64,000 nucleotides of DNA. It comes from Candidatus Multivoradales bacterium. Lineage in GTDB: Bacteria; Acidobacteriota; Thermoanaerobaculia; Multivoradales; JAHEKO01. Below the pieces are notes generated by a model. The model worked only from the letters and a program-made list of their open reading frames with translations. It had not been told where the DNA came from and ran no database searches. The stretch lies in NCBI GenBank assembly GCA_965223855.1, contig CBDCXM010000009.1, positions 3,008,001 to 3,072,000 of the forward strand. The letters are read 5' to 3'. Position 1 is the stretch's first letter. The number at the start of each line of letters is the position of its first letter. The translations under genes and the position numbers were made by a program. Shown here one piece after another: positions 8,359-58,814 of this stretch.

Positions 8359-9175
8359 GGTCCATCCTCGAATCCGGCTGAAACAGGCCGAAGAAGGCGC
8401 GGGCGAGGAGGCTGGTCTCCCCGGGCGCCCTGGGCGACTGGATCGACTCCGCCCGGGCGGCTTCCTTGGGCGGGCCGGAAGCGACCTCCACCTCTACCGA
8501 ACCGTCCTCCCGCTCGCGGCGCATCGTCACCGCATTCGTCCACAATCGACCGTCGTCCGCCTCGAACAGCGTCAGAGTGCGGACCGGCAGTTTGACTCCG
8601 GTGATCGCGGACGGGGTCGCCGCCCGATTGACGACCCGGAGCGGGGTCACCGCCCTGGTCGTCGTGTGCTTGAAGTTCTCGAGGGACTGAACCGCGCGCG
8701 ACCGGCTGGCGTAGCACAGCTCTCCCTCGAGCTTCGACGGCCCGAACCAGGTATCGCTGCTGCGCCTCAGCGGACTCTCGACGACGACGGACGGAGGAGT
8801 CTGGACCTCGACCTGAGCCCACAAACCGGTCGAGACGTAGAGCGTCGCGCTCTGGCCCGGAAGCAGGTGCGTCGCGACCCGCGGCGACGCCACGACCGAT
8901 CGATCCGCCAGCGTCGGTCTGATCCTGAGGCTCGAGCTTTCCTCGTCGAAAACGAAGCGACTGATCGTCGCGAGATCGTCCAGGTCGAGCCCTTCCCCGC
9001 GGGAAAGGCGCCACTCCCGCTCGTCCCCGTCCAGCCGCTCGGCAGAACGGCTCACCTGCACCTGCCATTCGCCGAAGTCGCTCTGCACTCGCAGGTCCAG
9101 CTCTTCGGCACGCAGTCGCAGGGAGTCGCCGGACGGGAGATCGAAGTCCCCCCACCAGCGGTTCGGCTGTGGCAT
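8351..9175 (-). CDS. Hypothetical protein (DUF432-like), co-transcribed with mscS
   Basis: SDTWFGPSKLEGELCYA and PVRTLTLF motifs; 8-bp overlap with mscS; start refined to ATG 9175. Confidence 0.65.
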   Translation of the reverse strand: MPQPNRWWGDFDLPSGDSLRLRAEELDLRVQSDFGEWQVQVSRSAERLDGDEREWRLSRGEGLDLDDLATISRFVFDEESSSLRIRPTLADRSVVASPRVATHLLPGQSATLYVSTGLWAQVEVQTPPSVVVESPLRRSSDTWFGPSKLEGELCYASRSRAVQSLENFKHTTTRAVTPLRVVNRAATPSAITGVKLPVRTLTLFEADDGRLWTNAVTMRREREDGSVEVEVASGPPKEAARAESIQSPRAPGETSLLARAFFGLFQPDSRMDRD

Positions 9176-9272
9176 CGATGTCGTTTCTCTGGCAGTCACT
9201 ACGGGGGCGGAGTCTAGCCTGAACGGCCCTGGCCGGTTGACGCCGCAGGCCGCCGATGGAACGCTTCGCCCG

Positions 9273-9635
9273 ATGTTGAGGATGTCCATGGACCTCTTCG
9301 AGGCGGCGGTCGAGTCGGCGCTCCAGACGATCCCTCCCGACCTGCTGGCCCATCTCGAGAACGTCGTCGTGGTGGCCGAAGACGAGCCGTCCTGCGACGA
9401 CCTCGAGTCGGTCGGTCTCGGACCGGAGGACTCTCTGTTCGGCCTCTACCAGGGGGTGCCGCTGCCCCTGAGGGAAACCGGGGGCTTCGGCGAGCTGCCG
9501 GATCGCATCGTCATCTACCGCAGACCCCTGCTCGAGGCCTGCGCCGATCGCAGGGAGTTGATGCGAGAGATCCGCGACACCGTCATCCACGAAGTCGGGC
9601 ACTACTTCGGCTTCGAGGAGGAGGACCTGCCGTGA
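9273..9635 (+). CDS. Zincin-like minimal metallopeptidase (Zincin_1)
   Basis: LFGLYQGVP, PDRIVIYRRP, TVIHEVGHYFG. Confidence 0.9.
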   Translation: MLRMSMDLFEAAVESALQTIPPDLLAHLENVVVVAEDEPSCDDLESVGLGPEDSLFGLYQGVPLPLRETGGFGELPDRIVIYRRPLLEACADRRELMREIRDTVIHEVGHYFGFEEEDLP

Positions 9636-10612
9636 CGGCCGCCGATGCACGACCCCGGGCGACGCTCGTCGACTACGTGTCGATCGCCCGGCCGAGCCAC
9701 TGGATCAAGCACATCTTCATCGTTCCCGGCATCGTCCTCGCGGCGCTGCTGCAGCCGAGCCGTCCGGCCGATCTTGGATGGAATCTGCTGCTCGGCTTCG
9801 CTTCCGCCGCGTTGATCGCCTCGGCCAACTATGTGCTCAACGAATGGCTCGACGCGGAGTTCGACGCCCATCACCCGGTCAAATCCGAGCGTCCCAACGT
9901 CGTTCGCCGCCTGTCACCGGTCGCTGTGTGGAGCGAGTACGCCCTCCTCGTGCTCGCCGGCCTTGCCCTGGCGAGCCAGGTGTCGCGACTCTTTGCTCTC
10001 ACTGCGGCCGCCTTCGTGGTGAGCGGCTGGATCTACAACGTGCAGCCGCTGCGACTCAAGGACCGGGCGGTGCTGGACGTCGTGGTGGAGGCGCTCAACA
10101 ACCCGATTCGCCTTCTCCTCGGCTGGGCGATGGTCGACGGCTCGACGCTGCCCCCCAGCAGCCTCGCACTGAGCTACTGGGCCGGCGGCGCGTTCCTGAT
10201 GACCGTCAAGCGCCTCGCCGAGCGCCGTTCCGTCCTCGAACGGAGTCCGGAAGCGGTGCTGGCGCGATACCGGAGGTCGTTCGCCACCTACACCGAGAGC
10301 TCGCTGCTGGTGCAGGCGCTCATCTGCGCCGTCACCGCCGCCTTCCTGCTCGCCGTCTTCCTGGTGAAGTACCGGATCGAGTACCTGCTGGCGGTGCCCC
10401 TCTTCGCGGCCCTCTTCGGCCGCTATCTGGCTCTCGGACTCGTCAGCGGGTCGGCCGCCGAGACCCCCGAGCGCCTGTTCCGCGAGAAGGGCCTCGTCGG
10501 GCTCGTGCTCGCCCTTGCGGTCGCGCTGGTCGTCCTGACGCGCTGGGATCTGCCGTGGCTCGAGGTGCTGGCCGATCCACATTTCCTGCGGCTGGACGAG
10601 CTCCTGCCCTGA
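9632..10612 (+). CDS. UbiA-family prenyltransferase (decaprenyl-phosphate phosphoribosyltransferase-like)
   Basis: ARPSHWIKH, NYVLNEWLDAEFDAHHPVKSERP; multiple TM segments; GTGA overlap with upstream gene. Confidence 0.85.
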   Translation: MTAADARPRATLVDYVSIARPSHWIKHIFIVPGIVLAALLQPSRPADLGWNLLLGFASAALIASANYVLNEWLDAEFDAHHPVKSERPNVVRRLSPVAVWSEYALLVLAGLALASQVSRLFALTAAAFVVSGWIYNVQPLRLKDRAVLDVVVEALNNPIRLLLGWAMVDGSTLPPSSLALSYWAGGAFLMTVKRLAERRSVLERSPEAVLARYRRSFATYTESSLLVQALICAVTAAFLLAVFLVKYRIEYLLAVPLFAALFGRYLALGLVSGSAAETPERLFREKGLVGLVLALAVALVVLTRWDLPWLEVLADPHFLRLDELLP

Positions 10613-10876
10613 GTTGCTCGGCGACTTCGACTCTCGCCGAGATCACCCGGAGTCGCTTGCAGGTCTGGAGCGGTACGGAATGGAACCCTCTACCGTGGGC
10701 GACTCACGCAGGCTCGCGAAGGTAGGAGTCGGGGCGTCGTGAAGGGATTCAGGTAGGGCGAAGGGGCTTCGGCAGTCTGAGTCTCGGCCTCCTTGAGCAG
10801 CAGTTGCCAGGCCTGGTGCGAGCCGGGGATGGCTCGAACTCTTTGGTGTCGGACGCTTGCAGATCGGCTGGAAGCG

Positions 10877-44960: not shown

Positions 44961-46025
44961 CATCTCGCTCCTTCTCGGCACTCCGGAGACAAGGAGTTCC
45001 CGACGACCCAGGAACGGTCGTGGAGTACGACAATCGGGAGAAGTCGCTCTCGCTTACCCGGCGCGCGCTGTCACCGGCTGGTAGCACGGTGGGCGGAAGC
45101 AGCCTTCGGGAAAGCGCGCCTCTCGGCATCTGCGGAGGTTGTCCGAAGCAAGACGGTACTCGACTAGGAACCACCGGTACGCCTCTTCCATCGCCCGACG
45201 CACCTTGCCGTCACAGGCATGGAACCTCGGGGCAGGGGTGCGCTCGAAGTGTTCAGGCCGGTCGTGAGGATCCTGCGCCAGGATTGCCTGGCGCCCCAGC
45301 ACCGGCTTGCCGGTCTCTTCGTGGTCCTTCTCCACGGCCTTGACCATCTCGCGGACTCGCTTGCGATAGTCCGAGCTGTCGAGATGCTCCCAGCAAGGGA
45401 TTGGCGTCAGTTCGAGACGATGCTTGGAGGCGAAGCGTCGCGAAGGATTCGCCTCTCCGCGGCGGAATGCTCGATACTGCTCCGAACGGTCGATCCACTC
45501 GCCTTCCATCGTCTCTCCCGAGAGAAGCGCATGCGTACTCGTCGCTCCAGGCCAGTGGCGCGGTGAAGCAACGAGTCGCTCCTTGACGCCCTGCTCGAGG
45601 AGATAGCGGAGTCGCCGAACGTGATCCTCAGGCGTTTCGCTGACGACGACATCCGTGTAGCGACGGCCCCAGAAACGCTCCCTCCAGTCGTGCAGCCTTC
45701 CGATCTCGCGCGCGACATTGGAATTGACGTAGGCCATGAAGCTGGCCATCTGCTGAACGTCGGTAGGCCTCAGGAGCAGGTGAGCGTGGTTCGACAGGTA
45801 GACGAAGCCGCAGACCCGCATCCCGGTTCTCTCCTGAGCGCGCGCGAGAATCCCGACGACGCGGTCGCGCACCTTGGCTGAGGGTCGCAACAGATAGCGG
45901 CCCTGTTGGGTCCGGACCGTGATCTCGACCAGCGACTCTTCCGGCAGGTAGCGAAGCTTCCTAGACATTCCATGGAGAAGGACGCAACCGAGGCGGAGAA
46001 TCTTGCACTATTCACCCGGCACCTG
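44827..46025 (-). mobile_element. RAYT-type element bounded by inverted 17-bp motifs
   Basis: Left ggttccgggtgaatagt (44827-44843, also 44684-44700); right actattcacccggcacc (46007-46023); 16/17 inverted match. Confidence 0.7.
45054..45968 (-). CDS. Y1 HUH transposase (RAYT/IS200-like)
   Basis: ITVRT, YLSNHAHLL (HUH), FWGRRY, LRY candidate catalytic Tyr. Confidence 0.88.
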   Translation of the reverse strand: MSRKLRYLPEESLVEITVRTQQGRYLLRPSAKVRDRVVGILARAQERTGMRVCGFVYLSNHAHLLLRPTDVQQMASFMAYVNSNVAREIGRLHDWRERFWGRRYTDVVVSETPEDHVRRLRYLLEQGVKERLVASPRHWPGATSTHALLSGETMEGEWIDRSEQYRAFRRGEANPSRRFASKHRLELTPIPCWEHLDSSDYRKRVREMVKAVEKDHEETGKPVLGRQAILAQDPHDRPEHFERTPAPRFHACDGKVRRAMEEAYRWFLVEYRLASDNLRRCREARFPEGCFRPPCYQPVTARAG

Positions 46026-46164: not shown

Positions 46165-47136
46165 ATGAAGAAGTACCGCAAGGACGGCAAGATCACCGGC
46201 GAGTACTACTCCCAGGCGCTGGGGCAACTCCAGGAAGAACTGGTGGAGCTCCAGGAATGGGTGAAGCTCAAGGGGCGCCGTGTGGTCGTGATCTTCGAGG
46301 GCCGCGACGCCGCCGGGAAGGGCGGCACCATCAAGCGCATCACGCAAAGGCTCAACCCCCGAGTGGTCCGCGTGGTCGCGCTGGGTGTGCCCACCGAGCG
46401 CGAACGCGGACAATGGTACTTCCAGCGCTATGTGCCCCACCTGCCGGCGAAGGGTGAGATCGTCCTCTTCGACCGCAGCTGGTACAACCGCGCCGGCGTC
46501 GAAAAGGTGATGGGCTTCTGTACCGACGACGAGTACCGGGAGTTCTTGAAGTCGTGCCCGCAGTTCGAGCGCATGCTGGTGCGCTCGGGGATCATTCTCA
46601 TCAAGTACTGGTTCTCGGTCAGCGCCGAGGAGCAGGAGCGGCGTTTCCAGGAGCGGATGAAGGACCCGCGCAAGCGCTGGAAGATCAGCCCGATGGACGA
46701 GGAGTCACGGCAAAGATGGGTGGACTACTCGAAGGCCAAGGACGCGATGTTGACCTACACCGACATTCAGCAGGCGCCCTGGTACCTGGTGGACGCGGAC
46801 GTCAAGAAGCACGCGCGGCTCAACTGCATCAGTCACCTGTTGGGCTTGATCCCCTACGAGAAGGCGCTCATTCCTGAGCGCGAGCTGGCCGCACGGCCGA
46901 TCACAAGTGACGATTACGATCGCCCGGATCCTACGACCCAGCACTGGGTGCCCGAGATCTTCGGAGGCGGTGATGAGAGCGAAGAGGAGCTTCAGAGGCT
47001 TCTCGAGGAGCGCCGCAAAGCGCTCAACAGAGTGAGCGAACTCGACGAGGAGCTCAAGAGCTCGGTCCACGTCGGCGAGAAGATCGCCAGGAAGGAGAAC
47101 GTGGAGGAGATCGCAACATCCGAGAAGCCAGAGTAG
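46165..47136 (+). CDS. ppk2: Polyphosphate kinase 2
   Basis: FEGRDAAGKGG, QWYFQRY, FDRSWYNRAGVE. Confidence 0.96.
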   Translation: MKKYRKDGKITGEYYSQALGQLQEELVELQEWVKLKGRRVVVIFEGRDAAGKGGTIKRITQRLNPRVVRVVALGVPTERERGQWYFQRYVPHLPAKGEIVLFDRSWYNRAGVEKVMGFCTDDEYREFLKSCPQFERMLVRSGIILIKYWFSVSAEEQERRFQERMKDPRKRWKISPMDEESRQRWVDYSKAKDAMLTYTDIQQAPWYLVDADVKKHARLNCISHLLGLIPYEKALIPERELAARPITSDDYDRPDPTTQHWVPEIFGGGDESEEELQRLLEERRKALNRVSELDEELKSSVHVGEKIARKENVEEIATSEKPE

Positions 47137-47280
47137 TGGCCTCATCCTGCCGGTCGTGGTGCTGCTGGTCGTGGTGTCGGGCGAGTCGTCGGCAACGCCG
47201 CACACCAGGGTGCGCACCGAGCCCAGGCTCCTGAAATCGGGCAAGTCAAGTAGGCGAGATAGGCTGTCCCACCTGACCCA

Positions 47281-47367
47281 GCCGGAGTGGCGGAACTGGC
47301 AGACGCAGGGGACTTAAAATCCCTCGACCTCCGGGTCTTCCGGGTTCGAATCCCGGCTCCGGCACCA
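47281..47367 (+). tRNA. tRNA-Leu(TAA), copy 1
   Basis: GCCGGAGTGGCGGAACTGGCAGACGCAGGGGACTTAAAATCCCT...GGCACCA with long variable arm. Confidence 0.95.
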
Positions 47368-47411
47368 GCAGCATTCGGCTCCAGAACACCCGGCATCAGG
47401 AAGGGACCCTC

Positions 47412-48015
47412 TTGAAGCGCATCCTCGTCCTCTTCGCCCATCCCCGGCCCGACCGGTCGGAGGCCAACGTCGTACTGGCCGAGGTGGCCCGGCGGTCGGA
47501 GGCGGTGACGTTCGTCGATCTCTACGCCGAATACCCGACCTTCGAGATCGACGTCGATCGCGAGCAGGAGCGGCTGGTCGAGCCGACGTGATCGTCTTCC
47601 AGCACCCGGTCTACTGGTACTCGAGCCCCGATGCTCAAGGAGTGGCAGGACCTGGTGCTGGAGCACGGCGCCTACGGTTCGACCGGCCACGAGCTCGAGG
47701 GGAAGCTCTTCTTCAGCGCCGTCACCTGCGGCGGCCGTCGCGGCGTGTACTGCGAGACGGGGGCCAACCGCTACGAGTTGCGTGAGCTCTTCGCGCCGTT
47801 CGAGCAGACGTTCCTGCTGTGCCGCATGCGCTACCTGCCGCCGTTCGCGCTCTTCGCCGCCGGCCACCGTCGACGAGGGTCGACTGGAGGGGCATGCCGC
47901 CGACTACGATCGCCTGCTCGACGCCGTCGCTCACCCGCCTCGATCTGGACCGTGCCGAACAGGCGCTGACACCTCCGACGATCTCGACAGCCTGCTGCAG
48001 GCGGGGGAGGGGTGA
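47412..48015 (+). pseudogene. kefG: Frameshifted copy of kefG
   Basis: Several 1-3 nt deletions relative to 49998-50612. Confidence 0.85.
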
Positions 48016-48426
48016 TGGAGTTCCTGGCCGACGCCTTTCTCTACCTCCTCGCCGCCGTGATCGCGGTGCCGCGGTGCCGGTCGCTCAGCGCCTCGGGCTC
48101 GGCTCGGTCCTCGGCTATCTGCTGGCCGGCATCGTCATCGGCCCGCTCCTCGGCCTCGTCGGGGCGGAGACCAAGGAGGTCAAGCACTTCGCCGAGTTCG
48201 GCGTCGTGATGATGCTGTTCCTCGTCGGCCTCGAGCTGCAGCCGTCGATGCTCTGGCGCCTGCGGGACCGCCTCCTCGGCCTCGGCGGACTCCAGGTGCT
48301 CGTCACGACCGCCCTCGTCTTCGGGATCTGCCTCGCCCTCGGCGTCGCCTGGAAGCCGGCCCTCGCCATCGGCATGACGCTGGCTCTCTCCTCGACGGCG
48401 ATCGTCCTTCAGACACTGGAGGAGAA
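48015..48426 (+). pseudogene. kefB: 5' fragment of kefB, frameshifted and truncated
   Basis: Matches 50612-51015 with a small internal duplication; breaks at the element copy. Confidence 0.85.
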
Positions 48427-48433
48427 AAAGAGA

Positions 48434-49408
48434 GGTTCCGGGTGAGTAGTCGGAAGCGGCCCCCGGTTGGCCGAACCCGTCGTGGATCGCTCGTTGTCCG
48501 CTTCATCCGATTCGAACTTCCGGCGGTTCACTCGGTTCCACTTCTCCCAAGCGATGACGCCTAGGCCGTTTCAGGGCATCTTCCTCCTTCTCGGCACTCT
48601 GGAGGCAAGGAGTCCCCGACGACCCGGAAAAGGTCGTGGACGACTCCGGGGGAAGTCGTTCTGGCCTTCGTCATCACCGGCAGGTAGCACGGTGGGCGGA
48701 AGCAGCCTTCTCTGCGGAGTTTGTCGAAGCAACACGGTACTCGACTAAGAACCAGGCTTCTTCCATCGCCCGACGCACCTTGCCGTCACGGGCATGGAAT
48801 CTCGCGCGGGCGTGCGCTCGAAGTGCTCAGGCCGGTCGTGAGGATCCTGCGCCAGGATTGCCTGGCGCCCCAGCACGGGCTTACCCGTCTCCTCGTGCTC
48901 CTTCTCTACGGCCTTGACCATCTCGCGGACTCGCTTGCGGTAGTCCGAGCTGTCGAGGTGCTCCCAGCAAGGGATCGGCGTCAGCCCGATGCTTGGAAGA
49001 GAACCGGAAGATTCTCTCCGCGGCGAAACGCTCGATACTGCTCCGAACGGTCGATCCACTCGCCTTCCATCGTCTCTCCCGAGAGAAGGATGCGTGCTCG
49101 TCGCTCCAAGTGGCGCGGTGAAGCAACGAGGCTCCTTGACGCTCGAGGAGGTAGCGGAGTCGCCGAACGTGATCCTCAGGCGTTTCGCTGACGACCACAT
49201 CCGTGTAGCGGCGGCCCCAGAAGCGCTCCCTCCAGTCGTGCAGCCCGATCTCACGGGCTACATTGGAGTGACGTAGGCCATGAAACTGGTGGCTCGACAT
49301 CCGAAGGCCTCAGGACGTGAGCGTGGTTCGACAGGTAGACGAAGCCGCAGACCCGCATCCCGGTTCTTTCTTGAGCGCGGCGAGAATCCCGACGACGCGG
49401 TCGCGCAC
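48434..49408 (-). mobile_element. Degenerate truncated second copy of the RAYT element
   Basis: Homologous to 44827-45872, starts ggttccgggtgagtagt; carries substitutions and many deletions. Confidence 0.85.
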
Positions 49409-49722
49409 TGCATCAGTCACCTGTTGGGCTTGATCCCCTACGAGAAGGCGCTCATTCCTGAGCGCGAGCACTGGCCGCTCGGCCGATCACAAGTGACGAT
49501 TACGATCGCCCGGATCCTACGACCCAGCACTGGGTGCCCGAGATCTTCGGAGGCGGTGATGAGAGCGAAGAGGAGCTTCAGAGGCTTCTCGAGGAGCGCC
49601 GCAAAGCGCTCAACAGAGTGAGCGAACTCGACGAGGAGCTCAAGAGCTCGGTCCACGTCGGCGAGAAGATCGCCAGGAAGGAGAACGTGGAGGAGATCGC
49701 AACATCCGAGAAGCCAGAGTAG
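49407..49722 (+). pseudogene. ppk2: Duplicated 3' fragment of ppk2
   Basis: Matches 46823-47136. Confidence 0.85.
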
Positions 49723-49866
49723 TGGCCTCATCCTGCCGGTCGTGGTGCTGCTGGTCGTGGTGTCGGGCGAGTCGTCGGCAACGCCGCACACCAGGGTGCG
49801 CACCGAGCCCAGGCTCCTGAAATCGGGCAAGTCAAGTAGGCGAGATAGGCTGTCCCACCTGACCCA

Positions 49867-49953
49867 GCCGGAGTGGCGGAACTGGCAGACGCAGGGGACT
49901 TAAAATCCCTCGACCTCCGGGTCTTCCGGGTTCGAATCCCGGCTCCGGCACCA
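49867..49953 (+). tRNA. tRNA-Leu(TAA), copy 2
   Basis: Identical to 47281-47367. Confidence 0.95.
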
Positions 49954-49997
49954 GCAGCATCCGGCTCCAGAACACCCGGCATCAGGAAGGAACCCTC

Positions 49998-50612
49998 TTG
50001 AAGCGCATCCTCGTCCTCTTCGCCCATCCCCGGCCCGACCGGTCGGAGGCCAACGTCGTACTGGCCGAGGTGGCCCGGCGGTCGGAGGCGGTGACGTTCG
50101 TCGATCTCTACGCCGAATACCCGACCTTCGAGATCGACGTCGATCGCGAGCAGGAGCGGCTGGTCGAGCACGACGTGATCGTCTTCCAGCACCCGGTCTA
50201 CTGGTACTCGAGCCCGGCGATGCTCAAGGAGTGGCAGGACCTGGTGCTGGAGCACGGCTTCGCCTACGGTTCGACCGGCCACGAGCTCGAGGGGAAGCTC
50301 TTCTTCAGCGCCGTCACCTGCGGCGGCCGTCGCGGCGTGTACTGCGAGACGGGGGCCAACCGCTACGAGTTGCGTGAGCTCTTCGCGCCGTTCGAGCAGA
50401 CGTTCCTGCTGTGCCGCATGCGCTACCTGCCGCCGTTCGCGCTCTTCGCCGCCGGCCACGCCGTCGACGAGGGTCGACTGGAGGGGCATGCCGCCGACTA
50501 CGATCGCCTGCTCGACGCCGTCGCTCACGGCCGCCTCGATCTGGACCGTGCCGAACAGGCGCTGACACTCTCCGACGATCTCGACAGCCTGCTGCAGGCG
50601 GGGGAGGGGTGA
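49998..50612 (+). CDS. kefG: Glutathione-regulated K+ efflux ancillary NAD(P)H oxidoreductase (KefG/KefF)
   Basis: FAHP, FQHPVYWYSSPAMLKEWQDLVLEHGFAYG. Confidence 0.9.
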   Translation: MKRILVLFAHPRPDRSEANVVLAEVARRSEAVTFVDLYAEYPTFEIDVDREQERLVEHDVIVFQHPVYWYSSPAMLKEWQDLVLEHGFAYGSTGHELEGKLFFSAVTCGGRRGVYCETGANRYELRELFAPFEQTFLLCRMRYLPPFALFAAGHAVDEGRLEGHAADYDRLLDAVAHGRLDLDRAEQALTLSDDLDSLLQAGEG

Positions 50613-52480
50613 TGGAGTTCCTGGCCGACGCCTTCCTCTACCTCCTCGCCGCCGTGATCGCGGTGCCGGTCGCTCAGCGCCTCGGGCTCGGCTCGGTCCT
50701 CGGCTATCTGCTGGCCGGCATCGTCATCGGCCCGCTCCTCGGCCTCGTCGGGGCGGAGACCAAGGAGGTCAAGCACTTCGCCGAGTTCGGCGTCGTGATG
50801 ATGCTGTTCCTCGTCGGCCTCGAGCTGCAGCCGTCGATGCTCTGGCGCCTGCGGGACCGCCTCCTCGGCCTCGGCGGACTCCAGGTGCTCGTCACGACCG
50901 CCCTCGTCTTCGGGATCTGCCTCGCCCTCGGCGTCGCCTGGAAGCCGGCCCTCGCCATCGGCATGACGCTGGCTCTCTCCTCGACGGCGATCGTCCTTCA
51001 GACACTGGAGGAGAAGGGGTGGATGAAGTCGCCGCCGGGGCAGTCGGCGTTCTCGGTGCTGCTCTTCCAGGACATCGCGGTGATCCCGATGCTGGCGCTC
51101 CTGCCGCTGCTGGCGGTCGCCGGCCACGCCACAGGCGGCGCCGACGGCCACCACGGCGGTGCGCTCGACGGCCTGCCCGGCTGGGTACAGACGCTGGCGA
51201 TCCTCGGCGTCATCGCGGCGATCATCGTCGCCGGCCGCTACCTGATGCGACCGACCTTCCGCTTCATCGCGCAGTCGCGGCTGCGCGAGATCTTCACCGC
51301 CGCCGCCCTGGCGCTCGTCGTCGGCATCGCGCTGGCGATGGACCTCGTCGGCCTCTCACCCGCGCTCGGCACCTTCCTCGCCGGGGTGGTGCTCTCGGGT
51401 AGCGAGTACAGGCACGAGCTCGAGAGCGACATCGCGCCGTTCAAGGGGATCCTCCTCGGGCTGTTCTTCATCTCGGTCGGCGCGGGGATCGACTTCGAGC
51501 TCCTGGCCGACCGTCCGGCGCTGATCTTCGGAGCCGCCTTCGGCCTCATGGCGCTCAAACTGGCGGTGCTCCTCGCGCTGGCCACCGCGTTCCGGATGCG
51601 CGGCAGGCAGCGCTGGCTCTTCTCCCTGGCGCTCGCTCAGGCGGGGGAGTTCGCGTTCGTTCTCTTCGGTTTCGCCGAAGGCGCCGGCGTCATCGAGTCG
51701 GAACTCGTCACCAGCCTGACACTCTCGGTCGCCATCACGATGCTCCTGACACCGCTTCTCTTCATCGTCTACGAGCGCGTGCTCGCCCCCCGCATGGTGG
51801 AGAAGAGCTCACGCGAGGCCGACGAGATCGACGAGCGGGGGACCGCCATCGTCGCCGGTGTAGGCCGCTTCGGGCAGGCGGTGAGCCGAATCCTGATGAC
51901 CAACGGCTACCGGGTCGTCGGTCTCGACCACGACCCCGCCCTCATCGAGCTGTGGCGTCAGATCGACCTCAAGGCGTACTACGGAGATGCGACCCGGCCC
52001 GACCTCCTCCATGCCGCGGGCGCCGAGGAAGCGAAGCTCTTCGTCGCCGCCCTCGACGATCGGGAGAAGCAGACCGCGCTCGTCGAGTACGTGGCGCGCA
52101 ACCTCCCCGAGTGCCGGATCCTCGCCCGCGCCGCCGACCGCCACCATGTCTACGAGCTCGAGAAGGCGGGCGCCCACGTCGTCGAGCAGGAGCTCTTCGA
52201 GTCGGCCATCGCCGCCGGGCGGAGAGCGCTGATCGAGCTCGGCACTCATCCGTTCAAGGCCGAGCATCAGGCGCGAGCGTTCCGCCAGCACGACGGCGAC
52301 ATGCTCGACGACCTGCGCGAACGCTGGCACGAGAGCGGCGTCGATCGCCGCTACATCGACATCGCACGGGCGCGGGCCGGCGAGCTGTTCGACCTGATGC
52401 GAGGCGACCGCGCCGCCGAGCGGCACGACTCCTCAGAGCGCGGCTGGGTGCCGCCGCCGAAGGACGACGTGATCCAGTAG
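50612..52480 (+). CDS. kefB: CPA2 K+/H+ antiporter with TrkA-N domain (KefB/KefC)
   Basis: [45 protein letters not shown]. Confidence 0.93.
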   Translation: MEFLADAFLYLLAAVIAVPVAQRLGLGSVLGYLLAGIVIGPLLGLVGAETKEVKHFAEFGVVMMLFLVGLELQPSMLWRLRDRLLGLGGLQVLVTTALVFGICLALGVAWKPALAIGMTLALSSTAIVLQTLEEKGWMKSPPGQSAFSVLLFQDIAVIPMLALLPLLAVAGHATGGADGHHGGALDGLPGWVQTLAILGVIAAIIVAGRYLMRPTFRFIAQSRLREIFTAAALALVVGIALAMDLVGLSPALGTFLAGVVLSGSEYRHELESDIAPFKGILLGLFFISVGAGIDFELLADRPALIFGAAFGLMALKLAVLLALATAFRMRGRQRWLFSLALAQAGEFAFVLFGFAEGAGVIESELVTSLTLSVAITMLLTPLLFIVYERVLAPRMVEKSSREADEIDERGTAIVAGVGRFGQAVSRILMTNGYRVVGLDHDPALIELWRQIDLKAYYGDATRPDLLHAAGAEEAKLFVAALDDREKQTALVEYVARNLPECRILARAADRHHVYELEKAGAHVVEQELFESAIAAGRRALIELGTHPFKAEHQARAFRQHDGDMLDDLRERWHESGVDRRYIDIARARAGELFDLMRGDRAAERHDSSERGWVPPPKDDVIQ

Positions 52481-52546: not shown

Positions 52547-55000
52547 TCAGAAGCCGAGTCGCAGAACCAGCCCGACGTTCCGCCCCGGGAGCGGCACCCG
52601 GTCCTTGACGAACGAGGTGTGCGTCCGCGCTTCCTCGTCGGTCAGGTTTGAGCCCCTCAGCAGGACGTCGAGGAAGTAGGTGTCGAAGAAGAACCGATAC
52701 CCGAGGTTGGCGTTGACGAGGGTGTAGTTCGCCGTCGCCGTCTCGTTGACGGCCACACGATCCTGGCTGTCCACCCACCGCCCCTCGATGCCGCCGCGCA
52801 GCCGGTCGCCCCGGTAGTGGAGCCCGGCGCCGAAGCGCTGCGGCGGGATCCGGGGCAGGTTGCTGCCGTCGTCGAACTCGGCACGGACGAAGTCGTAGAG
52901 AAGATCGAGATCCCACGAGGCGTGCGCTCGTTGCGCGAGCAGCACCGAGAGATCGACCTCACCTCCCCAGAAGTCGGCGTCCTGCTGCGACCACTGGAGT
53001 ACCGGCAGCCCGTCCTCCTCCTCACCGGTGAAGGCCTGGAAGATGAAGTCCGAGAACTGGTTGCGGAAGAGGTTGACGGCACCGGTCACCCGGCCCTCGA
53101 CCTTGCGCAGCGTCAGGTCGAGCCCCAGGGCCGCCTCGACATCGAGGTTCGGGTCCCCGACCTCGAAGGAGGCGGTGGCGAAGTGCGCGCCGTCCGAGTA
53201 GAGCTCTTCGCCCGTCGGCATCTTCGACGAGCGAGCGAGCGACGCCCCCAGAGAGTAGGTGTCGGAAGGCTTCCACACCAGCCCGATCGAAGCCGAGAGG
53301 GCGTCGAAGTCCCGGTTCGGTGCGTCGGCGGCTCTCACCGTGGTGTCCTGGGTTTCGTAGCGCACACCGAACTGGTAGCTCCAGTTTCCGCGCTCGAACT
53401 CCTGGAAGGTGAAGAGGCCGAGACTCTCCGCCTTGACAGGCGGCAGGAACGCCTCCTCGCCGACAGCCTCGAGATCCCTCGACCGCAGCTGCACGCCGAA
53501 CGACCCCTTGTGGGCGCCACGCTGGCGCTGCAGGAACTCGGCGCGAGCCTCCCAGGCGTCGTTGAAGAAGGTCGTCCCGATCTCCCCCTCGCCCTCGAGT
53601 TCGTCGTGCTCGTAGTCGACGACGCCGAGCCGGAACTTCGCGGACTCGACCAGACCGGTAGCACGGTTGAAGCCGCCCTCGAGGTCGAGGCGCTGCTGCC
53701 GCATGTCGATACGGATGTTCTCCTCCTCCTCCTCGCCTTCGTCGTGGTCGCCGTCGTGATCCTCGTCGCCGTCGTGCCCTTCGTCTCCTTCGTCGCCGTG
53801 CTCCTCCTCGTGGCCATGCTCGACGCCGGGGATCCCGTACTGAGTGTCGTAGCCCCTGACGGCGATGCCGAAGAAGCCCCGGTCGCCGAACCGGCGGCTC
53901 ATGCCGACGCCGGCGCTCGACGTCTCGAGATCGCTGTTCGGCAGAATGCCGAAGGGGTTCTCTTCCTCGTGATCGTCGTCGTGGCCGTCGTCGTCGTGGC
54001 CGTCATCGTCATGACCATCATCGTCGTGGCCATCGTCGTCGTGCTCCTCTTCGAGCGCCGCGAAGCCGGGAATCTCGTACTCGTCCGTCTCTCGCTGCAG
54101 CATCTCGAGATGCCACGCCCAGCTCTCGTTCCCACCGTCGAGGGAAACTGCACCGGCCCGCTCGTCCGACACCGAGCCGATTCTCAGGTCCACGGTGCCG
54201 GCAAAGCCGTCCGCTGGAGCGCCGTCGGGAATCCTGTTGTCCAGCACGTTGACGACGCCGCCGATCGCGTTGCTGCCGTAGAGGAGTGTTGCGGGCCCTC
54301 GCACCACCTCGACGCTTTCGGCGAGCAGCGGATCCGCGCTGACGGCATGGTCCGGGCTGCTGGTCGCGGCATCGAGGGTGTCGAGGCCGTTCTCCATCGT
54401 CTTCACCCGGTCGCCACCGAGGCCACGGATGATGGGCCGGCTCGAGCCGGGGCCGAAGTAGGTCGACGACACGCCGGCCTCCTGCGCCAGCGATTCGCCG
54501 AGCGTCGCCTCGACCTTGGACGCGAGCTCCAGGCCGTCGAGCACGTTGATCGGCGAGGCGACGTCGAGCTCGCCGCGGGCGTCGGGCGATGCCGTGACGA
54601 CAATCCTCTCGGCGTGCACCTCCCGGAGCAGCACGATCTCGAGCGGTGCGGACTCGCCGGTGGTCGCCTCGACTCGCTCCAGGGTGCGGTCGTGGCGAGC
54701 ACTGTCGATCTCGAGCAGGTGCTCACCGGGTTCGAGGCCCGTCAGTTCGAAGCAGCCCTGTTCGTCGGCCTGGGTGCGGACTCCGGTGCCGATGACGGAC
54801 AGCACGGCATCGACGACCGGCGCGTCGTCGGCAGTCACGACACAGCCTCGTATCGATGCCGCCTCGGGAGACTCTCCGGTCTGGGCGGTTGTGGGTATGG
54901 GTAGGGACAGCAGAAGAACCGATGCGACGATCGCCAGTCCGGCGGGGAGGGAGTTCCCCGTGGCGTGCCGCCTCTTCTGGATGCAGGAAGCGAAGTTCAT
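52547..55000 (-). CDS. TonB-dependent receptor, ZnuD-like, with His/Asp/Glu-rich loops
   Basis: FGPGSSRPIIRG, SPDHAV, RGPATLLYG, HDDDG x4, terminal Phe; SD GAGAGG before ATG 55000. Confidence 0.92.
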   Translation of the reverse strand: MNFASCIQKRRHATGNSLPAGLAIVASVLLLSLPIPTTAQTGESPEAASIRGCVVTADDAPVVDAVLSVIGTGVRTQADEQGCFELTGLEPGEHLLEIDSARHDRTLERVEATTGESAPLEIVLLREVHAERIVVTASPDARGELDVASPINVLDGLELASKVEATLGESLAQEAGVSSTYFGPGSSRPIIRGLGGDRVKTMENGLDTLDAATSSPDHAVSADPLLAESVEVVRGPATLLYGSNAIGGVVNVLDNRIPDGAPADGFAGTVDLRIGSVSDERAGAVSLDGGNESWAWHLEMLQRETDEYEIPGFAALEEEHDDDGHDDDGHDDDGHDDDGHDDDHEEENPFGILPNSDLETSSAGVGMSRRFGDRGFFGIAVRGYDTQYGIPGVEHGHEEEHGDEGDEGHDGDEDHDGDHDEGEEEEENIRIDMRQQRLDLEGGFNRATGLVESAKFRLGVVDYEHDELEGEGEIGTTFFNDAWEARAEFLQRQRGAHKGSFGVQLRSRDLEAVGEEAFLPPVKAESLGLFTFQEFERGNWSYQFGVRYETQDTTVRAADAPNRDFDALSASIGLVWKPSDTYSLGASLARSSKMPTGEELYSDGAHFATASFEVGDPNLDVEAALGLDLTLRKVEGRVTGAVNLFRNQFSDFIFQAFTGEEEDGLPVLQWSQQDADFWGGEVDLSVLLAQRAHASWDLDLLYDFVRAEFDDGSNLPRIPPQRFGAGLHYRGDRLRGGIEGRWVDSQDRVAVNETATANYTLVNANLGYRFFFDTYFLDVLLRGSNLTDEEARTHTSFVKDRVPLPGRNVGLVLRLGF

Positions 55001-55129
55001 GACAGACCTCTCTTGCGTGGGGATGACAGACAGTTCCTCGACCAATGCGGGTCGAGAGGTCGCTCGGTCTCGTCGAAGAGACCGGCGGCCGCGGATCTGG
55101 GAGGGCGAGAGGATCCTCGCCCTGGCGGA

Positions 55130-55483
55130 TCAGGCGGCCGGCGGAGCGCGAGAGGTCGGTAGAGCGAAGGGCTGGTGTAGCTCCGGTCGCGCGAGGTCGG
55201 CCGGCCGGGACGCCCCGAGCAGCTCGACGCTGCCGGCGCGAACCCAGGACGGCTCGCCGATCGACTGGCGGGAAGCCTGCACGCAATCGACGCACGACGG
55301 CTCGCTCAGCTGATGAACCGCCTCGACGTGCGCCCGCTCTTCGAGCGTCTCGTGACCAGCCGAAACCGTCGGCAGGTGCTCGTGACCGAGCGATTCGTGG
55401 TCGTGCGACCAGCCGGTCCCGATCGCCGCCATTCCGACGGCGAGCGACAAGGCCAGCAGTGAGCGCAACGAGAAGCTCTTCAC
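55130..55483 (-). CDS. DUF2946/CruR-like leader protein (signal peptide, His-rich, CxxC, C-terminal RAPP)
   Basis: HDH..HEH, CVDC, ...PTSRAPPAA*. Confidence 0.8.
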   Translation of the reverse strand: MKSFSLRSLLALSLAVGMAAIGTGWSHDHESLGHEHLPTVSAGHETLEERAHVEAVHQLSEPSCVDCVQASRQSIGEPSWVRAGSVELLGASRPADLARPELHQPFALPTSRAPPAA

Positions 55484-55593
55484 GAGCAGAAAGGTAGCAG
55501 GTGTGGGAGTTCCGCGACAAGATCGCCCGACGGCAGGTGTGAGGGCTCAGCGCAGCAGCGCCGGCCGGGCCGCTCGGCTAAGATGGCGCCGGA

Positions 55594-55932
55594 ATGATCG
55601 GGAAGCGCCTTTTCGCGACAACGCTCGCCGCGCTGCTCTTCGGCGCCGTGGCGGCACCCTGCATGACCATGGAGGGTTGCGAGCCGCCGCCGGCTCAGGA
55701 GTCGCATTGCGAGCCGACCGGGCCGACGCTCGATGTCGCCTGTTGCTGCGACGGTGCCGACTCGACCGCCACGGACGCGATGCGCCCCGCCGGCGCCCAT
55801 CAGGTGTCGCCCGCCGCTCCCGCTCTCGTCGCACGGACGAGCCACGGCCCGCGGGTCGATCGGCTTCCTGAGCCGCCGCCGCCCGCCCCGCCCGGCGCCC
55901 TGCAGACCTCGCTCTGCATCTCCCTGACCTGA
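55594..55932 (+). CDS. CutF-like Cys-rich leader protein with Pro-rich C-terminus
   Basis: Signal peptide, CMTMEGC, HC, CCC, PEPPPPAPP..LC; directly upstream of copA. Confidence 0.75.
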   Translation: MIGKRLFATTLAALLFGAVAAPCMTMEGCEPPPAQESHCEPTGPTLDVACCCDGADSTATDAMRPAGAHQVSPAAPALVARTSHGPRVDRLPEPPPPAPPGALQTSLCISLT

Positions 55933-56058
55933 CCGCTTCTTCGGCGGCGCCTCGAGCGCCGCTCGATGTCGTTGCGGAAGAGCATCAGGTAGGACCGTCC
56001 TCGGAAGGTCGCAGCTCCAACACAGCTGCCCACCCGGGGATCAGCAACAGGCCGGGAG

Positions 56059-57999
56059 ATGGGTATGAATCGCAGACAGTTCTTGAAGTTCGCATCGGCG
56101 CTCGGTGGCAGCGCCGTCGCACAAGCTCTCCTGCCGCCGTGGGCGCGATCGGCGTGGGCGGTCGGCAGCGACCCGACGGCCGATCCGCTCGCGCGGCCTT
56201 CCCTCGAGACGGCCGAGAGCTTCCTCCTGAAGGTGGCAGAGAGCTCCTGGGAGATCGAGGGCCGAACCGGCCGCGCCGTGACCCTCAACGGCACCATACC
56301 GGGGCCGCTCCTGCGGTGGCGCGAGGGCACCGAGGTGACCCTCGACGTCGACAACCGACTCGGCGAAGACACGTCGATCCACTGGCACGGCATCCTTCTG
56401 CCTCCCGAGATGGACGGAGTGCCGGGCGTGAGCTTCGCCGGCATCCCGGGTCGCGAGACCTTCCGCTACCGGTTCCCGGTGCTGCAGTCCGGTACCTACT
56501 GGTACCACAGCCATTCGGGATTCCAGGAGCAGTTGGGGCACTACGGGCCGCTACTCATTGATCCTGCGGGTGCCGACCCGATCGGGTCGGATCGCGAGAT
56601 CGTCATCGTCCTCGCTGATTGGACCTTCGAGAACCCCCGGCGGGTTTTCGCCAAGCTCAAGAAGGTCAGTCACGCGTACGACTATCAGAAGCTGACCGTG
56701 AGGGATCTCTTCCGCCGCGCCAGGAACGACGGTTGGGGCGAGGCACTGCGGGAGCGCGCCATGTGGGGATCGATGCGGATGAGCCCGACCGACCTCGCGG
56801 ACGTCACAGGAGCGACCTACACCTATCTGATCAACGGGCACGGGCCGGAGGACGACTGGACCGCGCTCTTCGAGCCGGGCGAGCGGCTCCGGCTGCGGAT
56901 CATCAACGCATCGGCGATGTCGATCTTCAACGTCCGTATCCCGGGTCTGCCGATGACGGTAGTGCAGTCCGACGGGCTGCCGGTGAGGCCGATGACGGTC
57001 GACGAGTTCCAGATCGGGACCGCGGAGACCTACGATGTCGTCGTCCAGACCTCGGAGCACCGCGCCTACACCCTGATGTGCGAGTCGATCGACCGCAGCG
57101 GCTTCGCGCGCGCCACGCTGACACCGGAGCTCGGCCTCCGCGCCGAGGTGCCCGAGCTGCGCGAGAGACCGCTGCTGACGATGGGCGACATGGGCATGGA
57201 GCACCACGGGGCGCACGGCGCCCACGATGGCGGAACCGAGGCGCCCGAGGAGCAGGGTGGGCATGGCTCTCACGAAGCCATGGATCACGGCAGCATGAAC
57301 CACGACGACAAGGATCACGGCGACATGGATCATGCCGGCATGCATCACGAAGGAATGAATCACGGCGCCATGGGTCACGCGGGCATGGACGCTCACGAGC
57401 ACGGCGAAGCGGCCGGCGGCGGCTCCGCATGGCCGACCGAGCCCACCGCCAGACAGCCGGTCGAGCGCGGCCCCGGGGTGGCCAACGTCGCCGAGACGCC
57501 GCGCAACAGACTTCACGAGCCCGGCATCGGGCTCGAGGACGTGGCTCATCGCACGCTGAGCTACGCGGATCTCGAGAGCCTCGACACCAACCCGGACACC
57601 CGGCCTCCGGAGCGGGAGCTCGAGTTGCATCTTACGAGCAACATGGAGCGCTACATGTGGTCGTTCGACGGCGTGAAGCTCTCCGAGAACCCCGAACCGA
57701 TCGTCTTCCACGAGGGGGAGCGCCTGCGCCTGACGATGGTGAACAACACCATGATGCCGCACCCGATCCACCTGCACGGGATGTTCTTCGAGGTGGTCAA
57801 CGGCAAGGGCTCCAGGCAGCCGCGCAAGCACACCATCATCGTGAAGCCGGCCGAGAAGCTGTCGCTCGACGTCACTGCCGACGCCGTCGGCGACTGGGCG
57901 TTCCACTGCCATCTGCTCTACCACATGCATGCCGGGATGATGCGGGTGGTGTCGGTCCGGCCTCGCACGTCGGAGCCGGCGGCGAGGGAGGAGGCATGA
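56059..57999 (+). CDS. copA: Copper resistance multicopper oxidase (CopA/PcoA type)
   Basis: Tat signal NRRQFLK, HWHG, WYHSH, HPIHLHG, HCHLLYHM, Met/His-rich insert; start may be 56065. Confidence 0.96.
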   Translation: MGMNRRQFLKFASALGGSAVAQALLPPWARSAWAVGSDPTADPLARPSLETAESFLLKVAESSWEIEGRTGRAVTLNGTIPGPLLRWREGTEVTLDVDNRLGEDTSIHWHGILLPPEMDGVPGVSFAGIPGRETFRYRFPVLQSGTYWYHSHSGFQEQLGHYGPLLIDPAGADPIGSDREIVIVLADWTFENPRRVFAKLKKVSHAYDYQKLTVRDLFRRARNDGWGEALRERAMWGSMRMSPTDLADVTGATYTYLINGHGPEDDWTALFEPGERLRLRIINASAMSIFNVRIPGLPMTVVQSDGLPVRPMTVDEFQIGTAETYDVVVQTSEHRAYTLMCESIDRSGFARATLTPELGLRAEVPELRERPLLTMGDMGMEHHGAHGAHDGGTEAPEEQGGHGSHEAMDHGSMNHDDKDHGDMDHAGMHHEGMNHGAMGHAGMDAHEHGEAAGGGSAWPTEPTARQPVERGPGVANVAETPRNRLHEPGIGLEDVAHRTLSYADLESLDTNPDTRPPERELELHLTSNMERYMWSFDGVKLSENPEPIVFHEGERLRLTMVNNTMMPHPIHLHGMFFEVVNGKGSRQPRKHTIIVKPAEKLSLDVTADAVGDWAFHCHLLYHMHAGMMRVVSVRPRTSEPAAREEA

Positions 58000-58814
58000 A
58001 GCTGTTGCGGAACGTCGCGATTGGCGGTTGGGCCGTCGCCTTCGCCCTCGCCATGGCGGTTCGAGCGGAGGCCTCCGGCAAGCATCCCGCCGATCATGAG
58101 GATGGAATGGAGAAGGCCCGCCACCACATGTTGCGCCACCATGGAGGGCTACCGCACTGGATGGTGATGGCGGATCGGCTCGAGTGGCGGGAGGACGAGG
58201 AGTTCCTCCTCTGGGATCTCCAGGGTTGGTACGGAGGCGATCGGCATCGGCTGTGGTTCAAGAGCGAGGCCGAGTACGAGCTCGATGGCTCTGATCCCGA
58301 CCGGCTCGTCACCGGCTCGATGAGCGAAAGCGACTTTCATGAGTTCGAGCTGCAGGCTCTCTACGGCCGGGCTGTGACCACCTACTTCGATGTCCTGCTC
58401 GGGCTGAGGCACGATTTCGAGCCGGATCCGGCGACGAGCTATGCCGTCGTCGGCCTGCACGGGCTCGCCCCCCAGATGTTCGAGATCGACGCCTCTCTCT
58501 TCGTCAGCGATGAAGGCGACCTCTCACTGCGCCTCGAAGCCGAGTACGAGCTCCTGCTGACCCAACGGCTGGTTCTCCAGCCTCGCATCGAGCTGGAGGC
58601 CTCGGCTCAGGAGGTCCCCGAACGAGAGCTCGGCAGCGGCCTCAGCTCGGCCGAGGGGGGACTGCGCCTGCGCTACGAGGTTCGGCGCGAGTTCGCCCCG
58701 TACATCGGCTGGAGCTGGGAGCGGAAGCTCGGTGCCACGGAGCGGCTCGCAACGGCGGCGGGGGAGGAGGCCTCGGCCTCGACGCTCGTTGTCGGACTGA
58801 GGCTCTGGTATTGA
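57996..58814 (+). CDS. copB: Copper resistance outer-membrane protein B
   Basis: DRLEW, WYGGD..RLWFKSE, GLAP, LTQRLVLQP, LRYEVRREFAPYIG; ATGA overlap with copA. Confidence 0.93.
   Translation: MKLLRNVAIGGWAVAFALAMAVRAEASGKHPADHEDGMEKARHHMLRHHGGLPHWMVMADRLEWREDEEFLLWDLQGWYGGDRHRLWFKSEAEYELDGSDPDRLVTGSMSESDFHEFELQALYGRAVTTYFDVLLGLRHDFEPDPATSYAVVGLHGLAPQMFEIDASLFVSDEGDLSLRLEAEYELLLTQRLVLQPRIELEASAQEVPERELGSGLSSAEGGLRLRYEVRREFAPYIGWSWERKLGATERLATAAGEEASASTLVVGLRLWY

Follow-up and report, generated by a model that had tools for sequence, protein, structure and literature searches.

A CruR-type leader gene and a rare, putatively CutF/CopL-like small gene lie back to back between a ZnuD-like receptor and copAB in an acidobacterial genome

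Do two small genes that lie back to back between a metal importer and a copper detoxification operon act as one control device, or are they two leader genes that adjoin only locally? We address this question in a 64,000-nucleotide stretch of the genome of Candidatus Multivoradales bacterium (Acidobacteriota, Thermoanaerobaculia; contig CBDCXM010000009.1, positions 3,008,001 to 3,072,000), hereafter the window, whose own coordinates are used throughout. A first-pass annotation had described two divergent small secreted open reading frames (ORFs) separated by a spacer of ~110 bp, a ZnuD-like TonB receptor after one and copAB after the other, and in each an 8-nt complement of the downstream ribosome-binding region, and had proposed that the two form a single transcription-factor-free metal control hub. 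The layout was confirmed. The spacer (55484–55593) is exactly 110 bp long and lies between ORF-minus (55130–55483, minus strand) and ORF-plus (55594–55932, plus strand), Pfam and NCBIfam matches agree with both downstream assignments, and both complements are exact, one per leader. Both small ORFs have a basic and hydrophobic N-terminus and a coding-type GC content at third codon positions (0.83 for ORF-minus and 0.85 for ORF-plus, against 0.82–0.87 in neighbouring genes). We think it fairly probable that they are two independent cis-acting leader genes placed back to back, each probably leaderless, and that their juxtaposition is local rather than a conserved composite device. As judged from sequence comparison, the import-side leader is of the CruR kind, with a predicted masking of the Shine–Dalgarno (SD) region and a leaderless design, and the ORF on the cop side is a very rare CutF/CopL variant with a putative mechanism.

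The leader gene ahead of the ZnuD-like receptor

ORF-minus is a CruR/DUF2946-type leader of 117 residues with a GTG start. It carries a signal peptide, three histidines (His27, His44 and His52), the motif C64xxC67 (C64VDC67) and, after a further 44 residues, R112APP115, which is followed by two residues (AA) and the stop codon. Its export-signal N-terminus, MKSFSLRSLLALSLAVGMAAIG, runs from basic to hydrophobic residues, as judged from inspection of the sequence together with a simple hydrophobic-window rule. CruR (Bp2923) is likewise an exported small first ORF before a TonB-dependent receptor, in the cruR–crtA(bfrG)–bp2921 operon of Bordetella pertussis. Its published hallmarks are a CXXC motif, RAPP three residues from the end, an export signal, the leading place in the operon and an extended intergenic region (PMC9426467). 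In Bp2923, 45 residues separate CXXC from RAPP, a distance conserved within 1–2 residues, and three residues follow RAPP, compared with 44 and two in ORF-minus. A long structured intergenic region is common to both, 162 nt in Bordetella and 129 nt here, measured from ORF-minus to the receptor ATG. So is a stretch at the 3′ end of the ORF in which C exceeds G, a feature linked to Rho in CruR (PMC9426467); the stretch resembling it here (55213–55080, C/G 1.5–1.86) covers the 3′ end of ORF-minus and the first part of the intergenic region.

ORF-minus departs from CruR in its Pfam score, which is below the cut-off, in its three extra conserved histidines, in a receptor that is ZnuD-like rather than CrtA-like and in the lack of a PepSY_TM gene at the locus. 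Its stall-site codons double as a predicted anti-SD sequence, whereas the term 'Shine-Dalgarno' occurs nowhere in PMC9426467, and it is probably leaderless, whereas cruR has a 5′ untranslated region.

A word-indexed homologue search with ORF-minus alone returned nothing but the query. When 40 relatives were searched in six frames, full-length matches appeared with E values of 4e-6 to 1e-4, and in the 11 aligned relatives H52, C67, R112, P114 and P115 are invariant and Cys64 is present in at least 90%. The spacer between CxxC and RAPP is of constant length in these 11, with an almost gap-free alignment and an unconserved sequence, and the three conserved histidines (27, 44 and 52) accompany CxxC in this leader subfamily. 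Seven of the 11 match PF11162 at E<=10, the best at 3.8e-4. A profile search places the family in 15 of 401 genomes of the phylum, mostly of the same order. Among 19 further leaders the CxxC–RAPP gap is 44 residues in 15 and 42–43 in four, and the tail after RAPP is 1–5 residues long (two in 15 of the 19). In 18 of 25 loci, and in the window as well, the gene downstream of the leader is of receptor type (Plug and/or CarboxypepD_reg). The source genome itself holds a second CruR-like leader (G000:C6:3758-4078, locus L066) of 119 residues, with a gap of 42 and the end RAPPA*, and it precedes another CarboxypepD_reg/Plug receptor. The first-pass view of ORF-minus as a CruR-type RAPP leader is thus upheld by the CxxC and RAPP motifs, the 44-residue gap and the PF11162 matches of its relatives; by its sequence ORF-minus belongs to the CruR class, with every hallmark present and a Pfam score below the cut-off.

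The gene downstream of ORF-minus (52547–55000, minus strand; likely start ATG at 55000) encodes a ZnuD-like TonB-dependent receptor with a CarboxypepD_reg N-domain, a plug and a barrel. Its best NCBIfam match is ZnuD (NF038289; E 1e-116, 391 bits, below the cut-off of 950), and its sole PDB match at E<=1e-10 is ZnuD of Neisseria meningitidis (4rdr, E 1.8e-54), with no CrtA chain among the matches at that threshold. The SPDHA plug motif and His-rich acidic loops are common to both proteins; the window receptor has two His/Asp/Glu-rich loops, and the acidic His loops are kept in orthologues 54–64% identical to it. Unlike ZnuD, it has an extra CarboxypepD_reg N-domain and is preceded by a putative arrest-peptide leader. 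ZnuD itself is under Zur control.

We used a receptor alignment to scan species-representative genomes, which returned 80 loci, at least two of them shared with the earlier 25-locus leader set. The loci belong to Thermoanaerobaculia (the nearest), Vicinamibacteria, Holophagae, Gemmatimonadota, Verrucomicrobiota, Bdellovibrionota and Proteobacteria. Upstream sequence of at least 450 nt was available for 73 loci. In 51 of them an exported small ORF ending in R[AG]PP lies just upstream of the receptor, in nine the only such gene is another PP-tailed small ORF, and the remaining 13 have neither. In a group of Verrucomicrobiota loci (L133, L136–L139, L142, L143, L149, L158, L162 and L170), leaders ending in RGPP or RAPP precede the same receptor clade; in place of CxxC they have only one Cys, within the motif H-x-C-[AV]-[VI]. 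Our literature search, which was not targeted at paired arrangements as such, found no paper naming CruR with ZnuD, or DUF2946 with Acidobacteri.

The nature of the receptor bears on which metal is sensed. It is a tentative alternative that zinc, or a set of several metals, rather than copper is what the import-side leader detects, and that a zinc-uptake switch merely neighbours copAB. The only solved relative of the receptor at E<=1e-10 is a zinc receptor with which it has SPDHA in common, its His/Asp-rich loops are conserved in orthologues, and the leader subfamily adds three conserved histidines to CxxC. Yet all tested family members (CruR and CutF) respond to copper, copAB adjoins the import unit both here and in a Gemmatimonadota locus described below (L135), and the score of the ZnuD model is far below its cut-off.

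Pairing of the leader's 3′ end with the receptor ribosome-binding region

The 8-nt complement on the import side, GACCTCTC (55150–55157, minus strand), runs across the Thr-Ser codons into the Arg codon of RAPP, of which it takes in the first base. Read from 55157 to 55150 it is exactly complementary to GAGAGGTC in the receptor SD region (55012–55005; 55005–55012, minus strand, 5–12 nt before the ATG). The intergenic RNA folds with a z score of -4.24, none of 200 shuffles being as stable, and the helix between anti-SD and SD is present in both its minimum-free-energy and its centroid structure. In the partition-function model the receptor SD is paired with the anti-SD at a probability of ~1.0 in free RNA. 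A second copy of GACCTCTC lies between the genes (55054–55061, minus strand) and is predicted to be locked in a local hairpin of its own.

We modelled a stall at RAPP by placing the first Pro codon in the peptidyl (P) site, where it reportedly sits in the cryo-electron microscopy study of RAPP, and by blocking the ribosome footprint. In this model the probability that the receptor SD is unpaired is 0.00 in free RNA; a ribosome stalled at RAPP raises it to 0.17, and one terminating at the stop codon leaves it at 0.00.

Similar designs occur at some homologous loci. In locus L044 a different 8-mer, AGCCTCCC, occupies the same -7 position from the Arg codon and pairs with that locus's own GGGAGGCT, which reads as a compensating difference. 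Helices of 7–11 bp occur within 12 nt of the R[AG]PP codons in the plus-strand leader of L043 and in L046, L056, L059 and L064. When the helices between tail and SD were compared with 200 dinucleotide shuffles of the tail, p was <=0.05 in four and <=0.1 in seven of 26 loci; in a wider set p was <=0.05 in 10 of 51 loci, where 2.55 would be expected. Tail/SD duplex energies in five loci, -21.0 kcal/mol for matched and -16.7 kcal/mol for mismatched pairs, are suggestive only. The anti-SD design is enriched across homologous loci.

In the mechanism that we propose for the import side, a ribosome on ORF-minus would stall at RAPP when metal is scarce and would cover the anti-SD at 55150–55157 together with the C-rich stretch that follows. 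The receptor SD would then be free and Rho kept off, and the ZnuD-like receptor would be made. Metal binding by the nascent CxxC/His sensor would release the stall, with termination three codons later; the anti-SD would re-pair with the SD, the untranslated C-rich RNA would be open to Rho, and import would be switched off. The hallmarks of the leader, the anti-SD pairing and the conservation of both are what we observe at these loci. Stalling itself, its relief by metal, the identity of that metal and the Rho-dependent attenuation would carry over to ORF-minus from the published CruR model.

The small gene heading copAB

ORF-plus starts with ATG and encodes an exported Cys-rich protein of 112 residues, with the N-terminus MIGKRLFATTLAALLFGAVAA and PPPPAPPG at positions 94–101. 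Both leaders had been said to end in Pro motifs, which is right for ORF-minus (…SRAPPAA*) but not strictly so for ORF-plus, because 11 more residues follow PPPPAPPG. The copA ATG lies 132 nt downstream. copA (56065–57999, plus strand) encodes a copper-resistance multicopper oxidase with a twin-arginine translocation (TAT) signal, matched by Pfam and by TIGR01480 (793 bits against a cut-off of 479); copB (57996–58814, plus strand), whose start overlaps the copA stop (ATGA), encodes an outer-membrane copper resistance protein (PF05275, E 2.6e-80, 269 bits against a cut-off of 27). The complement on this side, CATCTCCC (55917–55924, plus strand), ends 5 nt before the leader stop codon (55930–55932) and is exactly complementary to GGGAGATG in the copA SD region (56054–56061, plus strand).

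With ORF-plus as sole query, a word-indexed homologue search found nothing but the query itself, and a single-protein search of the 40 relatives gave noise (best non-self E 9.5e-4, over 54 residues with an internal stop). copA orthologues of 58–60% identity are present in only one of the 40 relatives, G020, in two copies, both of them preceded by an exported Cys-rich ORF of 131–140 residues. A profile of these three ORFs, searched against 1.84 billion representatives, retrieved four clusters, namely the three query rows plus a single additional one (E 2e-6). Across 300 genomes of the order, searched in six frames, hits were clear in the source genome (G000), in G020 (two) and in G544; G451 gave a match that was full-length but weak (E 4.2e-4). 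copA is downstream of the family member in four of the five contexts. In G544 the homologue lies 36 nt after a P-type ATPase gene, with copA downstream; the G451 homologue is followed after 16 nt by a gene whose product, on inspection by eye, looks like an outer-membrane efflux protein.

Cys23, Cys39, Cys50–51, Pro95 and Pro99 are invariant in the five family sequences, with 47–54 residues from the CC motif to Pro99 and 10–13 from Pro99 to the stop. The C-terminal ends are RRPAFTLHA[SA]LLL*, ERPPSAALPVVMLL and CPPPPPGPLYTLHSVLLI in the relatives and PPPPAPPGALQTSLCISLT* in the window. The PP-repeat is missing in three of the four aligned relatives, two of which have the RRPAFTLHA[SA]LLL end and one a PP pair only. 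None of the five sequences matches PF11162 at E<=10. These comparisons point to a very small unannotated family, present in four genomes and CutF/CopL-like in architecture only. Elsewhere in G020, locus L042 holds an exported 144-residue ORF (1223–1657) that is His-rich and Cys-poor, with RAPP 14 residues before its …HCSLLL* end; its tail resembles that of the copA-leader family.

CutF, from the cutFOG operon of Rhodobacter capsulatus, is likewise an exported ORF of fewer than 150 residues before a TAT-exported multicopper oxidase, and it too is described as having several Cys, a poly-Pro run near the C-terminus and, towards the 3′ end, a sequence complementary to the oxidase SD (PMC9973294; bioRxiv 10.1101/2025.02.05.636593). 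The Cys pattern of ORF-plus is C-x5-C…C…CC, compared with CxxxC in CutF. The CutF survey asked for fewer than 150 residues, a signal peptide, PP within the last 15 residues and a downstream gene within 1000 nt (PMC9973294). ORF-plus passes these rules narrowly, with its last PP at 99–100 of 112 and 13 residues after P99. Unlike CutF as described there, it has its Pro run 12–19 residues before the stop, it has no detectable sequence relation to DUF2946, and a modelled stall on the Pro run leaves the copA SD unfreed. The complement CATCTCCC, 24 nt past the last Pro codon, would not be covered by a ribosome positioned on the Pro run.

The order of small Cys-rich ORF, copA and copB is also that of copLAB in Xanthomonas and Stenotrophomonas; CutF and CopL act only in cis according to the CutF paper, with a cis requirement for copper induction reported for CopL (PMC9973294). 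ORF-plus and its relatives have no NCBIfam match at E<=10, and no similarity to CopL was detected in these NCBIfam searches. CopL is said to be the subject of a study by Voloudakis et al. in 2005.

The reading of ORF-plus as a conserved small gene placed like CutF or CopL before a multicopper oxidase is supported by the family and its copA context. Because of its position and geometry, a cis-regulatory role of the CutF/CopL type is plausible for ORF-plus: as the first gene of copAB, it would most likely act in cis on copA expression as those two do. Stall-driven unmasking of the copA SD is not supported by our folding models. It is rather unlikely, though it deserves weight, that ORF-plus has no regulatory role and instead simply opens the cop operon as a structural gene, its small, exported, Cys-rich product binding copper or serving as a chaperone. 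Four invariant Cys would suit such a protein, as would the lack of a conserved anti-SD in the family, a copA SD that is fairly accessible in all modelled states and what looks like ordinary operon spacing in G544 and G451. On the other hand, the C-terminal tail and the CC-to-Pro distance are conserved and the middle of the protein is not, as in arrest-type leaders, and CutF and CopL, which occupy the equivalent place, function exclusively in cis (PMC9973294).

Promoters, spacer and the back-to-back arrangement

Both -10-like hexamers noted in the first-pass annotation are in place: TACCTT (55491–55496, minus strand), 7 nt before the GTG of ORF-minus, and TAAGAT (55579–55584, plus strand), 9 nt before the ATG of ORF-plus. 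By reading the sequence we also found a -35-like TTGTCG (55515–55520, minus strand) at an 18-nt spacer from TACCTT; on the plus side there is no -35 match and no SD. A strict scan for sigma-70 promoter and terminator consensus gave 0 sites. Across 24 leader genes, a TANNNT hexamer starts at -16 to -12 in 16, and 14 of these 16 lack any SD-like motif over the final 20 nt. The 16 include both window ORFs, the CruR-like leaders of relatives and members of the ORF-plus family; the chance rate, estimated from base composition, is ~0.02 per gene. In the wider set TANNNT is found for some candidate start in 18 of 51 leaders, at positions -15 to -12 only, and mostly in Acidobacteriota and Gemmatimonadota loci. 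The earlier suggestion of near-leaderless mRNAs thus gains comparative support from the 16 of 24 leader genes, and the mRNAs of both leaders are probably leaderless. The word 'leaderless' is used in neither the CruR (PMC9426467) nor the CutF (PMC9973294) paper.

The spacer was also examined for signs of a transcription factor. We found no AT-rich palindrome in its 110 bp, in line with the first reading, and the reported lack of a regulator gene nearby agrees with a Pfam scan of 20 ORFs at 29.7–64 kb, in which no metal-regulator family was matched. The spacer contains two 20-nt direct repeats (55497–55516 and 55533–55552, plus strand) that are 16/20 identical, have the core GCAGGTGTG and lie 36 nt apart. 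Copy 1 takes up the whole stretch between the -35 and -10 of the minus promoter, directly next to the -10, and copy 2 is centred ~52 nt upstream of the presumed plus start. These repeats could be an operator. The genome is 92% complete and has one Fur-family gene, far from the region, and many OmpR-type regulators; no CueR or CopR-type protein in it scores above the cut-off (33.9 against 147 bits, and <=188 against 279 bits).

We regard it as unlikely that a DNA-binding regulator encoded elsewhere binds the GCAGGTGTG-core repeats and so represses transcription from the import promoter and activates it from the cop promoter, the leaders being only a post-transcriptional layer. Such a regulator would be consistent with the identity and spacing of the repeats, with copy 1 sitting inside the minus promoter and copy 2 upstream of a promoter that has no -35, and with the Fur-family and OmpR-type genes of the genome. 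However, the motif is not enriched genome-wide (with <=2 mismatches allowed, 20 matches compared with 15 for the control), no regulator gene lies within 29.7–64 kb, the odds against an exact 9-nt repeat arising by chance within 110 bp are only moderate, and a spacing of 36 nt is unusual for OmpR-type sites.

Is the pairing itself conserved? A rule for divergent PP-tailed small ORFs flagged four of the 25 CruR-like loci, and two were left after inspection, the window and L043 of G020. The divergent ORF of L047 was dropped as a likely antisense frame with no hydrophobic N-terminus, and that of L045, which we take to be ferredoxin-like, was dropped by eye. L043 (4717–11855) has three CruR-like leaders in one locus, two of them facing away from each other (8467–8826 on the minus strand; 8870 or 8921 to 9277 on the plus strand); its minus side runs leader, DUF4198 gene, second leader (7001–7408, without CxxC) and receptor. 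In another G020 locus, L040 (3794–12546), a copA leader (10224–10646) lies back to back with a His/Cys-rich leader (9690–10037) that ends in IEHPPQARA and heads, as read from the sequences, a cusCBA-like resistance-nodulation-division (RND) operon. copA and copB were found together once among the 80 receptor loci, in L135 (1–5717) of Longimicrobiales, Gemmatimonadota, where copA, copB, a RAPP leader and a ZnuD-like receptor follow one another on one strand and an OmpR-type response regulator is divergent from copA. This locus hints at a link between the receptor clade and copper.

From L040, L043 and L135 it follows that leader pairs recur and copAB adjacency recurs once, and that the exact arrangement of the window never does. 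A CruR-like leader paired with a copAB leader occurs in one of the 25 CruR-like loci, the window itself, and in none of the 80 receptor loci; the synteny of the two leaders that the first-pass annotation had wanted sought is seen only in the window. The pairing looks like a local juxtaposition and not a conserved control unit.

The proposal of one integrated transcription-factor-free hub, in which both leaders would switch import off and detoxification on with metal and the pairing itself would be functional, did not fare well, and we judge it very unlikely. The 110-bp spacer is common to both units, and both look leaderless. No classical copper regulator scores above the cut-off in the 92% complete genome and none lies within 29.7–64 kb, divergent leader pairs recur in G020 (L040 and L043), and copAB abuts a RAPP leader–receptor unit in one Gemmatimonadota locus; all this would agree with a hub. 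Against it stand the counts of the exact pairing, the OmpR-type regulator that adjoins copAB in L135, a spacer repeat that fits an operator, two core promoters that do not overlap, and the plus side, where folding gives no unmasking of the copA SD.

A reciprocal switch without a dedicated transcription factor strikes us as a long shot. The mRNAs would be leaderless, the CruR-type leader would turn the importer off when its Cys2/His3 sensor is loaded, and ORF-plus, as a new class of arrest peptide, would turn copAB on with copper. Its conserved P-x3-P and the hydrophobic tail of 10–13 residues would pause the ribosome at termination or close to it, exactly over the anti-SD at 55917–55924, and the periplasmic Cys cluster of ORF-plus would bind copper to switch copAB on. 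On such leaderless mRNAs the first ribosome would trail the polymerase from the very first transcribed base.

Two independent cis-acting leader genes, back to back, are the reading that we prefer, and a number of results weigh against it. On the import side, PF11162 gives ORF-minus 13.3 bits against a gathering cut-off of 23.7 (E 0.14, full-length alignment). The ribosome stalled at RAPP frees the receptor SD only partly (0.17), because other pairing partners appear. The tail:SD helix is not significant in 41 of the 51 homologous loci, and the receptor start codons were chosen by a rule favouring SD-like motifs. On the cop side, ORF-plus has no Pfam or NCBIfam match (its relatives likewise, for NCBIfam at E<=10), and hhalign of its profile against the CruR-like profile gives a probability of 0.6%. 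The probability that the copA SD is unpaired is 0.25 in free RNA; a ribosome placed on the Pro run changes it to 0.22 or 0.05, and one at the stop to 0.31. The copA leader fold is unexceptional (z -1.42), and no comparable anti-SD helix was found in the two G020 copA leaders. As to the leaderless signature, the leader starts of L046 and L048 in the 24-gene set were placed by eye, and L041 was tried with two starts.

The surroundings of the module are unremarkable in composition. The GC content of the window is 67.7%, and no island signature was detected by composition around the module, GC being 0.65–0.71 across 50–60 kb. The scan of 20 ORFs at 29.7–64 kb gave, among its matches, KefB/KefF-type, PPK2, IS200-type transposase, glucose/sorbosone dehydrogenase, nuclease, GNAT and RND pump families. 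The IS200-type transposase gene is at 45054–45968. A kefF-like gene and the 5′ part of a kefB-like gene form a near-identical direct duplication of ~1.4 kb (47000–48445 and 49586–51035), with blocks 99–100% identical at offsets of 2586–2597 nt, which implies small indels. The upstream copy yields truncated ORFs, and the duplication could be genuine or an assembly artefact.

These findings would extend nascent-chain metal sensing of the CruR type to Thermoanaerobaculia-like Acidobacteriota and to ZnuD-like receptors. Stall codons that are themselves the anti-SD would provide a translational route beside the published Rho route, and a leaderless-mRNA signature is found in most of these leaders. 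The rare unannotated Cys-rich family heading copAB operons would be a new test case for control of the CutF/CopL type, and the back-to-back arrangement is a compact natural construct of ~0.9 kb for comparing opposite stalling logics.

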